IMG/VR virus record: IMGVR_UViG_2703718851_000003
Strand: one strand, 5' to 3'
Source of the DNA: a virus
Lineage: Duplodnaviria; Heunggongvirae; Uroviricota; Caudoviricetes
DNA: 32,999 nt
The position numbers and the translations under genes are program-made. The notes beneath the pieces were generated by a model that searched no databases, was not told the DNA's origin, and worked only from the letters and a program-made list of their open reading frames with translations. How positions within the stretch are numbered: position 1 is the first letter of the stretch; every line of letters starts with the position of its first letter. Of the stretch, positions 5,413-25,492 are shown one piece after another.

Positions 5413-6603
5413 TTAATTGCTGTTAACCGAGGTGACCAGATTTGCCAGGTATTTATCGGTAATACGCTGGCGCAGGGTCAGGTTTTCAAGAGGAGGCACC
5501 GGGGTATAGTCATAGTCGATATACAGTTTTCCGGCCTTGAGGGTTTCCGCATCATTGGATTCTTCGCTGAACCAGCAGGTCGCATCCACGATATAGCCGT
5601 TTGTTTTCAGCTCACGGAATTTGGCATTGATGCCGTCAACGATGTCGCGAATCAGCGTTGCAGTGATGGGCTTGTCCACCGCCCACATGTGCGCCTCAGC
5701 CATCGTGTCGGCCAGCACCTGCGCGGTGCGGGTGTAGTTTTCAAAGAGGAACAGCGGGTCATCGGAGCAGGTACGGTTACCCCAGAAGCGGAAACCGTCG
5801 CGGCGAATCAGCGTAGTGACGCCTGACTCGTTAAGCAGGTCAGCATCGGTGCCGGACTCCTGCAAATCCCAGAAGACGGATGCGCTGATGCCGGTAACAC
5901 CGTTCACCCCGACATTGGACAGCGTTTTATGCCAGCCCTGCTCCTGGTCGATTTTAGCGCGCAGACCCAGCGCACGGGCGGTGGCATACGCGGTGGCGGT
6001 GGTACTGGTGACCGTATCCCATGCGAGGAAATCCGGCCAGATGACCATCAGCTCACGCTGGCTGAAATTCTGGCGGTAGGCTTTCACCTCGGAAATGGTT
6101 TTACAGCCCCATGCGCTGATATACCCGAAAGCGCGCAGCTTCTGACAGACTGATGCCAGTGCAACAGCCACCTCTTTGGTGTCCAGTCCCGGCACGCCGA
6201 GAATACGCGGTTTAACACCGGTTACCGACTCTGCCGCCAGCAGGGCTTTCAGTCCGGTGTACTGACCGTTTTCGTCGGTGGTGCCGATGATATTGGAAAC
6301 GGTCTGCGCGAGTTTCGTTTCCTCGTCGTCACCGGTGCCGTCTTCCACACGCACGACAACGGTGACCGGTTTTGACTGGTCGGCGATGGCCTGTAACGAC
6401 GCCGCCAGCGTGCCTTTTTTACCGGCCTTTGCAATTGCGCTCTGCACATTGGTAATCAGCACCGGTTTATTGAGGGGGAAGGTTTCCGCATCCGCATCGC
6501 TGGCCGTGCAGACCATGCCGACAATGGCAGTGGATACGGTGGAAATGACGCGGGTGCCGTCGTTAATCTCCAGCACCTGCACGCCGTGATGATAGTCACT
6601 CAT
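5413..6603 (-). CDS. FI: Contractile tail sheath protein FI
   Basis: 396-aa ORF, first gene of the FI-FII-E-T-U-D block; length as P2 gpFI. Confidence 0.92.
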   Translation of the reverse strand: MSDYHHGVQVLEINDGTRVISTVSTAIVGMVCTASDADAETFPLNKPVLITNVQSAIAKAGKKGTLAASLQAIADQSKPVTVVVRVEDGTGDDEETKLAQTVSNIIGTTDENGQYTGLKALLAAESVTGVKPRILGVPGLDTKEVAVALASVCQKLRAFGYISAWGCKTISEVKAYRQNFSQRELMVIWPDFLAWDTVTSTTATAYATARALGLRAKIDQEQGWHKTLSNVGVNGVTGISASVFWDLQESGTDADLLNESGVTTLIRRDGFRFWGNRTCSDDPLFLFENYTRTAQVLADTMAEAHMWAVDKPITATLIRDIVDGINAKFRELKTNGYIVDATCWFSEESNDAETLKAGKLYIDYDYTPVPPLENLTLRQRITDKYLANLVTSVNSN

Positions 6604-6711
6604 CCGTTTAACTCCGTGGTTAATGGGTGAGTGGTATTTTCAGTTGTGCCGGAGATGTCAGGCTATTTGTCCCGGTTGGCTAATCGACAGCACAACCACC
6701 GGTAAAGAAAA

Positions 6712-6730
6712 GGCGGGCAATTTGCCCGCC
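6712..6730 (-). terminator. GC-rich hairpin followed by a T-run on the minus strand (intrinsic terminator candidate upstream of FI)
   Basis: Near-palindrome ggcgggcaatttgcccgcc; the minus strand continues TTTTCTTT. Lies between the Z/fun-locus gene and the FI start. Confidence 0.55.
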
Positions 6731-6929
6731 TGTCCTGATTTGTACTCACTCATTTTCCGACTGACAATTTACATAGCCCAAACGCTATCAAATCTGACAG
6801 TCTGCTTTGGGTAAACTGATAATGGGCAGAGCTTTGTATGGCTAACTTCAGCATGATACCTTACAGTCAAGCTGACAAAAGGCGGAATGATTATTCGTTG
6901 ATACACATCCTCCTGTAAGGAAACAAAGC

Positions 6930-7700
6930 ATGTATAAAGAACTTATAGAACAGAGACTGAATGAGGCAAAAGCCGCCAGAGCTGCGCTGAGCAAGACTAA
7001 TGGTGTAATTGTCGAAAAAACACATAACCCTGACCGCGGACTGTATCTCGTTAATTATGCCAATTTACTTATGAACAGGCAGATAGACATCTTCGATGAT
7101 GCGCTTCTCCTCCTCGAAAACGAACGATACCAAAGCGCTTGTATTGTTAGCCGAGGAATGATTGAAACTCATGCCTTCTCACGACTCTTAAACAAGAAAG
7201 TAGAGAAAATTTTGACTACCCAAAATGGCCACGCAAGTGTAGATAACGCTATCGAAGTTATATTGAACTTTACGAATAGTTCTCGATTTAAAAAGTCAGA
7301 GCAAGAAAAGATTCAGAAAGGAGTATTTGACCCGAACGACTACATGTTTACTGAGGAGGCTAAATATCGTTTTGAAAACCTACTTGCTGTCAGTATGCAT
7401 GTGATGACTGCTTTACGCGAACTCTATAAAGATGAGATGAAGCAGACTAATCAGATGGAAAGTGATTTTGAACTGACTTATGACATACTTAGCGAATATG
7501 TTCATCCTTCACAAACGAGCATCTACCACTACTACACACCTGAAACCCACTTAGTTCCTACTTCAGTTGGTAATATTCATGCTTATGTGCATGCTCAGCT
7601 ACAATGTGTGAGAGCGCTACTTTTCATATTAGAAGCAAAGAGTCAACATTATTGGTCTACACAGTTAGCAAATGAGATGACCAAACGAGCTAAAGAGTAA
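6930..7700 (+). CDS. AT-rich accessory protein of unknown function at the Z/fun locus (opposite strand to the tail genes)
   Basis: 256-aa ORF with AAGGA Shine-Dalgarno 8 nt before the ATG; visibly AT-rich; occupies the slot between FI and G where P2 carries the non-essential Z/fun gene. Homology to Fun itself cannot be confirmed from memory. Confidence 0.75.
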   Translation: MYKELIEQRLNEAKAARAALSKTNGVIVEKTHNPDRGLYLVNYANLLMNRQIDIFDDALLLLENERYQSACIVSRGMIETHAFSRLLNKKVEKILTTQNGHASVDNAIEVILNFTNSSRFKKSEQEKIQKGVFDPNDYMFTEEAKYRFENLLAVSMHVMTALRELYKDEMKQTNQMESDFELTYDILSEYVHPSQTSIYHYYTPETHLVPTSVGNIHAYVHAQLQCVRALLFILEAKSQHYWSTQLANEMTKRAKE

Positions 7701-7890
7701 GGCCTAAGCCCTGCAATGTGTTTATTTGAAAAATATTTCAATTTTTTCTTTGTATGCTGTAAATGACCTGAGCCCCTCTGACCAGAGAGCCTTGATGTTA
7801 TCAATGTCCGCTCTTGGCACAGAGCGGACTGTCAGATTAGGGGTTACTCTGTGTTATAGATATGTGAGCTCACACCAGAGTTTATACAGC

Positions 7891-8418
7891 TTATTGTGGC
7901 ATTTCCGGCCATTCAGGATTTGCAGGATCCACACGACTGACCAGAACGCTGTAGCGTTCCCATGACTCCAGTCGTGCGCGCTCCTCATCCGTCGCCATAT
8001 TCAGCCTGACGGCGCGTTCCAGCGGCTGAATAACGCTTTCCGCTTCGGAAAGTAACGCGGCCTTTTGTGATTCTGCCTGTTGTTGCTGTTCATCTGCCGT
8101 ATAAATCCGTTTAACCACAGCACCATCCTTAAACATCCATTTACCTGAGTCGTCAGCACGTCGATTGGAGGTAATATCAGGAACCTCAACAACGCTAAAA
8201 CCTTCAGGATTAAGCGTTGAAGCATCTCTGGTGATGGCGACAATAATATTATTTTCATCGTAAACAATCTTTATTGTGTCTGGCTGAAAGTTCTTCACTT
8301 CCTCATACCAGTTTTTTCCGTCTTCGGACCATAACCAGATAACATCAAAATTCTTTGTTAGCTGATATTGCTCTTTTGTTTTTGGATTACCTGACTTAAT
8401 GTTCTTTAAATGCTGCAT
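7891..8418 (-). CDS. G: Tail fiber assembly chaperone G
   Basis: 175-aa ORF immediately downstream of H; length as P2 gpG. Confidence 0.9.
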
Positions 8419-12940: not shown

Positions 12941-13726
12941 ATGGTCAGCTATAATGTGACTAATGTGTGGGGGCTAATCGTTTTTTTCCTTTGTAGCTTT
13001 GCAGTATTAGCATTTTTTAGCTTTGGTAAAAGCAACCTTATGAGGCTTATTGCACATTATTTCAATTTTGGATATTCAGACAAAAAATTAAAAAGACTTG
13101 ACCGCGAGTGGCGCGACATTCAACTATTTAAAATAATTAACGGAATCAATGTATCAGGCATTGAAAATGTGAGAATGATACAGCAGGGACTGATTGATGG
13201 AAAACTAAAAACATCGTATTTTTTCCTTACTCGCATCTGGGGTGACACAACAAAACCACCACACATAATTAAAACAATAATTGTAATTCTGACCAGTATT
13301 TTTTACATTCTCCTCGCATGTTACATACACAACAAACAATCCGTTATAGTAAGGGATGCCATAGGCATACCATATAAAAACATGATGTACTATGTTTATA
13401 GTGACAAAGTTCTTTTATCCTTCAAAAATAAAGCAGTTGAATTTAATAAAACTTATAGCCTTGCCGATTGCAAGAAACTGCAAAACGTATTTATAAAAGA
13501 CACACTTCCTGAGATCGCCTGCAATAAGCTCTTACAGCTAAACGAGGAGGACTCCGAATGGTTAAGCCAGGAGATTAAAGATAATAACAGTCACAAAAAA
13601 GCATTATTAATACTATCCCTCGTCTATTTCACTTCAGGTCTGGTTATATTCCTGTCATATACAAAATTCTTTTACGCCAATAAGAAGGTTTTAGAATACA
13701 AAGCATCAAATAAAAATCACTCATAA
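12941..13726 (+). CDS. AT-rich predicted membrane protein (three hydrophobic segments) at the orf30 locus
   Basis: 261-aa ORF with a strong AAGGAG Shine-Dalgarno 7 nt before the ATG; hydrophobic stretches VWGLIVFFLCSFAVLAFFSF, IIKTIIVILTSIFYILLACYI, ALLILSLVYFTSGLVIFLSY; opposite strand to the flanking V and S genes. Confidence 0.8.
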   Translation: MVSYNVTNVWGLIVFFLCSFAVLAFFSFGKSNLMRLIAHYFNFGYSDKKLKRLDREWRDIQLFKIINGINVSGIENVRMIQQGLIDGKLKTSYFFLTRIWGDTTKPPHIIKTIIVILTSIFYILLACYIHNKQSVIVRDAIGIPYKNMMYYVYSDKVLLSFKNKAVEFNKTYSLADCKKLQNVFIKDTLPEIACNKLLQLNEEDSEWLSQEIKDNNSHKKALLILSLVYFTSGLVIFLSYTKFFYANKKVLEYKASNKNHS

Positions 13727-24243: not shown

Positions 24244-25194
24244 TTAATTTGCAGTATTAGCCTTTAAAGTAAGCACCTTAGATTTGTAACGTTGCTCAAT
24301 CACTCCCATTGAATGCAAACGACCAAAGAGCTTTTTGGCAATGATTGTTTCTCTCGCATTTTCGGCGTCTTTAATTATTTTCCAATAATCTATTTCCCTA
24401 GCCATCAAAAAATGCTGCTCATTCCTAACTTTTAATGCATTGCCTAATACAATAACTCCAGTTACCAACTTAGGCTTATCTCTGGCATATAGTTTTGTTT
24501 TCGTTGGGTGTATAACATGCCCATGCTTATTAACGATCTTACGAATTACAGCGCAGAACAATCGATTTACGTTACTACCTGAAAAAGTGAGATCATCAAC
24601 ATAAACAGTCATGTTAACTCGTAACTTTTGGCAAAGTTGATATATTTCACCAAACATTCTTGAATTTGCAAAATATGCCAACGGCATACTGATGCGACTA
24701 CCTGTTGGCAATCGGTCATGACAAGTACATATGTGGGACAAAACATCAGCAACATCAGATGACATTTTCATCACCGAAAAGAAAAAAGAAAATATCATCC
24801 CTCTTGTAGTTGATGGAAAAAAAGCTTTAATATCTGTTGTCATCATCTTTTCATTATTAAGATGAGCTTTAGCATTCGTCACATTAGAGCACTTCTTCTT
24901 CCCTGAGTGCAGATATTCTGGCAAAGCAATCCGCGATAACAAACTTGCAATTCGTGTATGTACAAGTTCTAGTTTTTCTAAAGGCTTTTGTATTTTTCGT
25001 GCTTTCCCTTTTTTAGAAAGCTGCTCAAAAACGGAATAGTTTCCTTCATCTTTTCTCAAAGAGTATAAATCATCAAGACTAACACAAAGCAAATTCGCCA
25101 GTTTTCTTTTACTTTTGAGTTTATAAAATGGCGAATCCATTATGTCATAAGATTTATTTTTAGTATTAACTTTAAGCTTTTTCCGTTTTTTCAT
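24244..25194 (-). CDS. Reverse transcriptase, short retron-like type (no C-terminal effector domain)
   Basis: 316-aa ORF with RT motifs in canonical order: NAKAHLNN, DIKAFFPS (motif A), LPTGSRISMPLAYF (motif B), YVDD (motif C), then KLVTGVIV (the VTG triplet typical of retron RTs). Pattern resembles the Ec86 retron RT as I recall it. Confidence 0.85.
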   Translation of the reverse strand: MKKRKKLKVNTKNKSYDIMDSPFYKLKSKRKLANLLCVSLDDLYSLRKDEGNYSVFEQLSKKGKARKIQKPLEKLELVHTRIASLLSRIALPEYLHSGKKKCSNVTNAKAHLNNEKMMTTDIKAFFPSTTRGMIFSFFFSVMKMSSDVADVLSHICTCHDRLPTGSRISMPLAYFANSRMFGEIYQLCQKLRVNMTVYVDDLTFSGSNVNRLFCAVIRKIVNKHGHVIHPTKTKLYARDKPKLVTGVIVLGNALKVRNEQHFLMAREIDYWKIIKDAENARETIIAKKLFGRLHSMGVIEQRYKSKVLTLKANTAN

Positions 25195-25492
25195 TTTTAT
25201 TACTTACCCACTCCAGAACATCCAGAACTTTACCGGCTAAATTTAAACGCAATCGCTTAGACAAACGGCCTTGCGTGCCTAATGATTCCGAAAAGAATAC
25301 TAAAGAGGATACTGGTATGTCGAAATGGGAGGCGTAACGCTCTAAGACTTCAATCGACGGTGACCAAACTCCGCTTTCAAGCGATACTATTTTGTCTTTT
25401 GGAATACCTAAAGATGAAGATAACTCAACTATTGATTCTTTATGGTATTGCCTTATTAAACGAAGGGCTTTATGTAACATAGGCAACTCCAT
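25172..25492 (-). CDS. Xre/Cro-type helix-turn-helix protein, overlapping the RT start (start may be the ATG at 25480, GGAG ribosome-binding site)
   Basis: 106-aa ORF; HTH segment ...ESIVELSSSLGIPKDKIVSLESG...; 23-nt overlap with the RT ORF suggests translational coupling. Confidence 0.75.
   Translation of the reverse strand: MELPMLHKALRLIRQYHKESIVELSSSLGIPKDKIVSLESGVWSPSIEVLERYASHFDIPVSSLVFFSESLGTQGRLSKRLRLNLAGKVLDVLEWVSNKNEKTEKA

Follow-up and report, generated by a model that had tools for sequence, protein, structure and literature searches.

Gene content of the Z/fun slot

The window analyzed here, a stretch of 32,999 nucleotides, comprises almost an entire P2-like prophage, and Escherichia coli MFDS1001074 holds a near-identical prophage (100% identity over 6810-7890; 99.3% over 6500-8000). 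Between the genes for the tail sheath protein FI (5413..6603, minus strand) and the tail-fibre assembly protein G (7891..8418, minus strand) lies a gene with an ATG start (6930..7700, plus strand) that encodes a soluble protein of 256 aa (29.7 kDa, pI 6.2) of the DUF5677 family. A first-pass annotation had described this gene as a 256-aa ORF with a good Shine-Dalgarno sequence, opposite in orientation to the flanking tail genes, in a visibly AT-rich segment at the P2 Z/fun locus between FI and G; all of this is borne out. The Shine-Dalgarno sequence AAGGAA (6917..6922, plus strand) stands 7 nt 5' of the ATG at 6930, the gene is opposite to both FI and G, the GC content is 37-44% over 6700-7900 vs 55-60% in both flanks, and the P2 record puts fun(Z) between the same two tail genes and in the same orientation.

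The Shine-Dalgarno stretch GTAAGGAAACA is kept in the copies at loci L004, L005, and L012-L015, with GTAAGGATGCA in its place at L006. The homology search returned 108 homologs, the full-length ones being 38-98% identical to the 256-aa protein, and dN/dS for the gene is 0.12-0.38, above the 0.06 of FI; the full-length homologs and these dN/dS values identify a genuine gene and not a chance ORF, and indicate that selection on it is purifying, if looser than on FI. GC3 is lower, at 0.38 compared with 0.69 in FI. The identical gene is entered in RefSeq as WP_000276253.1, "DUF5677 domain-containing protein".

Unrelated genes hold this slot in other P2-like phages, as the first-pass annotation had stated, examples being pro147, P2-EC46, P2-EC58, P24E6b, and P22H4. 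The two Z-region ORFs of P2-EC46 (locus L023, 294-1292 and 1819-2925), which are labeled "putative lysogenic conversion", match models for a Lit-like Peptidase_U49 (PADLOC Lit, E 5.5e-11) and a nuclease effector (PDC-M68A, E 1e-23), and ORF1 of P2-EC58 gives a weak match to a DRT-associated transmembrane protein. The Z/fun slot is a documented hotspot for accessory and defence cargo (PMC9122126; bioRxiv 10.1101/2024.10.15.618418; PMC13586616), and in such an established reservoir an unknown gene is to be expected.

It had been left open whether the occupant of the slot is Fun itself, and a fragment of a tail gene had been named as the result that would overturn the annotation. The 256-aa protein is no tail-gene fragment, and pairwise comparison with P2 Fun(Z) (NP_046777) gives a best BLASTP E-value of 20. 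In P2, Fun(Z) is a lysogenic-conversion gene product that blocks phage T5 and also confers sensitivity to FUdR. The slot and the orientation that the two genes share would fit a reading in which the 256-aa protein is Fun(Z), a diverged ortholog of it, or a piece of a tail gene, but we regard this as exceedingly improbable given the BLASTP result and the restriction of the DUF5677 domain to the 256-aa protein, together with a tblastn search of 50,697 phage records in which no relative was found in any deposited phage genome. Identity with Fun(Z) was also dropped on length (528 aa vs 256 aa) and on the lack of any Pfam hit in Fun(Z). The place of fun(Z) is taken by an unrelated, rare, and horizontally mobile DUF5677 protein, and the gene is horizontally acquired cargo (a "moron") of the Z/fun accessory-gene hotspot.

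Insert boundaries and flanking repeats

Homology of the flanks to P2, P2-EC46, P2-EC58, and pro147 (alignments and blastn) ends at 6809 and resumes at approximately 7806; the variable insert, or cargo cassette, is therefore 6810..7805 (996 bp) and contains this one gene. On the left, the conserved P2 flank ends in an inverted-repeat arm, AATCTGACAGTCTGCTTTG (6791..6809), which corresponds to the feature called "right inverted repeat" in records AJ512680 and AJ512683. The right boundary (7806..7838) consists of a hairpin, GTCCGCTCT-TGGCAC-AGAGCGGAC (7806-7829), followed by TGTCAGATT, with folding energies (dG) of -18.5 and -17.9 kcal/mol; here 7820-7838 is an inverted copy of 6791-6809 (19 nt, 89% complementary). 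These flank repeats agree with those that the P2-EC Z-region records annotate as inverted repeats, so that the location between G and FI and the inverted-repeat flanks that mark the Z hotspot are both present. Outside P2, the TGGCAC-loop hairpin goes with the DUF5677 gene at four further loci (L004, L012, L013, and L006).

Short direct repeats are also found at the two edges of the insert (GTCTGCTTTG at 6800-6809 and GTCCGCTCTTG at 7806-7816), and deletion of the insert between them would give a palindrome with an 18-bp stem, AATCTGACAGTCCGCTCT-TGGCAC-AGAGCGGACTGTCAGATT. No empty Z slot with this ancestral palindrome was found among 70 P2-like phage records. Most P2-like phages retain a full left hairpin, as in P22H4 (GTCTGCTTT-GAGCGA-AAAGCGGAC). 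The TGGCAC-loop hairpin of Pantoea carries a compensatory stem change, Rouxiella has such hairpins at both sides, and an island of E. coli ws5-3 that has no tail genes holds the unit whole, from the left repeat through the cargo to the right repeat. From the window (6791-6809 and 7806-7838) and loci L004, L012, L013, L006, and L026 taken together, Z-slot cassettes are broken inside hairpins. The hairpin pattern of the Z slot suggests an attC-like exchange of cassettes that would be targeted to hairpins; Nilsson et al. in 2004 reportedly may already cover the breaks of Z-slot cassettes within hairpins.

Transcription signals

The first-pass annotation had described the ORF as flanked by a GC-rich hairpin terminator at 6712..6730 and a candidate promoter at approximately 6794-6823. 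Both sequence features are present; the hairpin is wrongly assigned in orientation and ownership. The hairpin (6711..6731, minus strand) has nine pairs, seven of them G-C, with a dG of -20.8 kcal/mol and a z-score of -3.1. It lies within a stretch (6604..6809) that is 95.6% identical to P2, it stands 5' of the ORF, and the T-run belongs to the minus strand; thus, it is an intrinsic terminator-like element of the P2 backbone and does not serve the 256-aa gene as a terminator. The hairpin is upstream of the activator site of pF, the late promoter of the F operon, for which the P2 annotation could be transferred to the window free of gaps (6627..6700, minus strand; transcription start at approximately 6627-6629, activator binding site at approximately 6672-6700), and it would halt leftward transcription ahead of pF.

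The promoter-like sequence (CTGACA, 18 nt, GATAAT; 6794..6823, plus strand) matches 10 of 12 consensus positions; its -35 hexamer belongs to the conserved inverted repeat of P2 and its -10 hexamer to the insert. Across 1.5 kb we counted two promoter-like sites against a mean of 3.0 in shuffled sequences, a number that is not above the shuffles, so the site is to be read as a consensus match only. Its 18-nt spacing arises because 17 nt of the E. coli ws5-3 copy are deleted here. The window copy also is without some 16 nt upstream of the gene (6860-6880) containing TGCTATCAAAA, an extended -10-like element that other enterobacterial copies keep; the ORF here is still intact. The cassette's own terminator is intact in relatives, as AGCCC-TGCAAT-GGGCTTTTTATTT (L004 and L012) or GCCCCT-GTAG-AGGGGCTTTTT (L013), and compared with these copies it has decayed in the window, where the stem is lost (7701-7760). 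No structured RNA in the region was matched by Rfam.

Protein family, predicted structure, and conserved residues

The sole Pfam domain of the 256-aa protein is DUF5677 (PF18928; residues 43-202; E 1.1e-9; 39 bits vs a gathering cutoff of 27.1), and distant relatives also match PF18928. PHROGs and NCBIfam gave no match for the protein, and none of the PADLOC 2.0 families (5,027 models) matched it at E <= 1; 43 relatives likewise had no match in PADLOC, the DitA and DitB models included. This is a small family: a set of 1.84 billion representatives yields 66 clusters at E <= 0.001. In a second homology search all relatives were stand-alone proteins of approximately 180-315 aa, a few partial sequences aside, and this search yielded no domain fusion that would hint at a function. 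The UniRef label of the Rouxiella ortholog is "HEPN domain-containing protein".

The AlphaFold2 model (pLDDT 91.3, pTM 0.86) is all-alpha with one beta hairpin. Foldseek comparison with the PDB and BFVD gave no match below an E-value of 0.1, and sequence-profile searches of PDB sequences were empty, with no relative of solved structure. The protein has no predicted transmembrane segment or signal peptide.

Just three residues, R75, Y184, and H192, are invariant in 44 divergent relatives, and a further four (E79, L187, E189, and P193) reach at least 90% conservation; the close family additionally conserves N49-R50-Q51, D53/D56/D57, N116-S-S-R119-x-K121, R147, and H157. The R75-x5-H81 sequence of the 256-aa protein resembles the HEPN motif Rx4-6H. 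We considered it as a canonical motif and dropped it for lack of conservation of H81: position 81 is tyrosine in most relatives, so that the canonical HEPN motif is no feature of the family. The invariant H192 has no arginine 4-6 residues upstream. In the model, R75 and E79 sit on the second long helix (67-97), and E189-x-x-H192-P falls in a non-helical stretch right behind helix 179-188. HEPN proteins have an acidic/basic pair on helix 2 and a histidine at the end of helix 3 (PMC3710099), positions that agree with those of R75/E79 and E189-x-x-H192-P, and an alternative histidine is used in AbiV and the AF0298 family (PMC3710099). On the basis of the model, R75/E79 and E189/H192 could together form a rearranged HEPN-like site in the DUF5677 protein.

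Distribution and mobility of the DUF5677 gene

The gene is rare: among 5,426 complete E. coli genomes eight carry it, as do 10 of 185,579 species genomes. Four of the eight E. coli carriers have it in the P2 Z slot, and the other four have a variant that is 89.5% identical; the one variant genome examined, E. coli ws5-3, holds it in an IS3/H-NS/integrase island. On 203 public contigs the protein is present in identical form, labeled either "DUF5677 domain-containing" or "hypothetical". DNA identity of the cassette to its counterparts in Rouxiella, Pantoea, Huaxiibacter, and an E. coli island outside P2 is 85-91%, with identity across genera that spans approximately 60 bp upstream as well as the downstream TGGCAC-loop hairpin, and the GC content of the cassette is 39-43% in all close enterobacterial copies examined. 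In every case the surrounding DNA is mobile or variable: besides the P2 Z slot, homologs occupy IS/integrase islands and the termini of lambdoid prophages close to umuDC, and others adjoin Phd/VapC on a circular Klebsiella plasmid of 30.5 kb and on contigs like it. The gene thus moves among mobile elements of different types, and its nucleotide composition is foreign.

Two homologs deserve separate description. The Rouxiella silvae copy (L012, 1992-2759) has an in-frame stop at codon 29, and the database product is a protein of 226 aa from a downstream start; this copy may be a pseudogene or encode a shortened form. In Pseudomonas sivasensis (L019, 4525-6608), a 53%-identical homolog lies approximately 3.4 kb from the P2-type tail genes U and D, and Phage_P2_GpU is among the neighbors of homologs; the DUF5677 family may also be present in P2-like prophages or tailocin clusters beyond the Enterobacterales.

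The prophage carries further cargo of low GC content. The Q-A (old/tin) hotspot contains a type VI retron (24244..25194 and 25172..25492, both minus strand; GC 37-40%), the reverse transcriptase of which matches PADLOC RT_VI (E 4e-105) and the adjacent 106-aa protein HTH_VI (E 8e-31); no msr/msd RNA was detected there by Rfam at the gathering threshold. A third AT-rich gene on the opposite strand (12941..13726, plus strand; 261 aa, 38% GC) is located between V (baseplate) and virion morphogenesis genes; its product, a RefSeq hypothetical protein (WP_047087877.1), has no Pfam or PADLOC match.

Genomic neighbors and proposed function

We propose that the DUF5677 cargo is an anti-phage defence gene, with a single-gene system of the abortive-infection type as the most likely form, and give this reading an even chance. 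It is a reasonable one, and its basis is guilt by association together with a domain that is shared but uncharacterised and a marginal match of the fold. The first-pass annotation had named the gene as a candidate for superinfection exclusion or defence. The context favors the broader part of that suggestion, in that the gene occupies a known defence hotspot, homologs stand beside known defence systems, and DUF5677 is annotated in the Aditi protein DitA; exclusion at the membrane is unlikely for a soluble protein without a transmembrane segment.

A known defence system lies within 1.5 kb of the homolog at three of 10 species-level loci, namely Avs4 (E 1e-174) in Pantoea septica, Gabija GajA/GajB (E 1e-236) in a Rhizobiales genome, and Lamassu LmuB (E 8.5e-75) in a betaproteobacterial metagenome-assembled genome. 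Matches to SIR2, TIR, AbiEi, HEC-08, and PDC-S35 were also obtained in the pooled set of homolog neighbors. This proximity argues against the alternative that the gene serves lysogenic conversion or host fitness, for example as a regulator, in stress, or in host interaction, with no role in defence and in a slot that tolerates insertions. We rate that alternative as unlikely, although several observations fit it: the Z and Q-A hotspots also hold cargo unrelated to defence (cytolethal distending toxin, partition systems, and tail-fibre swaps), many homologs are in generic mobile elements with no adjacent defence genes, the protein matches no defence model, and one DUF5677 ORF that was assayed elsewhere was not reported active. 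The latter is a Bacillota ORF challenged in Enterococcus faecalis with six Enterococcus phages, which falls outside the five active ORFs reported (bioRxiv 10.1101/2025.10.07.681051). Besides the neighboring defence systems, the Pfam domain in common with DitA and the lack of a signal peptide, a transmembrane segment, or any further Pfam domain speak against a host-fitness role.

The link to DitA comes from the DefensePredictor study (PMC13092281), in which the portion of the supplement available to us places PF18928 at residues 276-427 of the DitA representative of Aditi (HHpred probability 99) and includes a 219-aa E. coli DUF5677 protein among the predicted novel defence genes. DUF5677 is not among the domains validated in that paper (PMC13092281), and the same portion of the supplements has no entry under the RefSeq accessions of the 256-aa protein; nor is there an entry for WP_000276253 in the supplements of Rousset. 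Millman et al. (2022) described the Aditi proteins as having no identified domain and gave no mechanism.

No neighbor family recurs in more than two of 18 loci, and no conserved partner or antitoxin was seen; from this we infer that the DUF5677 protein acts either by itself or together with factors of the host or phage. The Phd/VapC pairs next to some homologs are complete modules that switch side from locus to locus, and the one-gene insert of the window has no adjacent cognate antitoxin. These surroundings also bear on the alternative that the protein aids infection by the P2-like phage itself, as a counter-defence or phage-regulatory factor such as an inhibitor of a host defence. Anti-defence genes do occur in variable regions of mobile elements, anti-defence systems were counted in 28 of 1,511 P2-like prophages, and a small, soluble, all-helical protein would be suited to such a task; we nonetheless hold this to be quite improbable. 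Homologs are found by complete defence systems or toxin-antitoxin modules in islands and on a plasmid, and not in phage early regions; the gene is oriented against the late operons, as is fun(Z), which is expressed in the lysogen; and the invariant polar residues form a dense group that resembles an active site more than a binding surface.

For the defence gene that we favor, the sequence of events would be as follows. The gene would be transcribed in the lysogen from its own promoter, against the late tail operons, and its product, soluble, cytoplasmic, and all-alpha, would remain inactive until triggered by an infecting phage. Once triggered, the protein would act through a polar site that combines R75 and E79 on one long helix with E189-x-x-H192-P after another helix. 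The core fold may be like that of a HEPN bundle, which makes RNA cleavage or RNA binding the first guess, but action through a HEPN-like nuclease or RNA-binding site is put forward tentatively and is doubtful. We infer expression in the lysogen and anti-phage activity as well as the HEPN-like site and its substrate.

A more far-reaching version, which is speculative and rather unlikely to hold as a whole, would make the stand-alone DUF5677 proteins a new family of single-gene anti-phage effectors that share the DitA domain, have a rearranged HEPN-like site, and move as cassettes with the TGGCAC-loop hairpin. In this family Rx4-6H would give way to a putative site made up of R-x3-E in helix 2 and E-x-x-H-P where helix 3 ends, and the carriers would be prophages, plasmids, and defence islands. 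DUF5677 is a catalogued and uncharacterised family that the annotation table, as far as it was available, also places in Aditi DitA. The stand-alone form is small, soluble, confidently modeled, and has few invariant residues, and if protective it would be a minimal, tractable system in which to study the DUF5677 domain and perhaps Aditi as well; if not protective, it would be another unexplained prophage moron.

Comparison with known systems

P2 Fun(Z) is the positional counterpart of the DUF5677 protein, with the same slot between G and FI, the same orientation against the tail operons, inverted-repeat flanks, and the status of non-essential cargo; they differ in that Fun(Z) is a 528-aa protein of unrelated sequence and without a Pfam hit, whereas the cargo here is a 256-aa DUF5677 protein. 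Other short, AT-rich cassettes of P2 hotspots, namely the DUF4238 protein, the Lit-like ORF1 of P2-EC46, and PD-T4/PD-T7, are similar in kind, and several of them have been validated as defences, but they have no homology to the 256-aa candidate.

AbiV of lactococci and the AF0298 (2hsb) family depart from the canonical HEPN arrangement. In these proteins the alternative histidine is N-terminal to the arginine, whereas here R75 is approximately 117 residues N-terminal to H192; the 256-aa protein is also double a HEPN domain in size and has a large insert (100-175), and there is no link at the sequence level (no PADLOC hit; PDB profile searches empty). By domain, the comparison is with Aditi, an experimentally validated defence system, since PF18928 is on both DitA and the 256-aa protein. 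DitA is longer, with an N-terminal region of approximately 275 residues, and acts with DitB, whereas the 256-aa protein stands alone: the DitA and DitB pair is absent from an insert that has room for one gene, and the PADLOC models for DitA miss both the 256-aa protein and its relatives.
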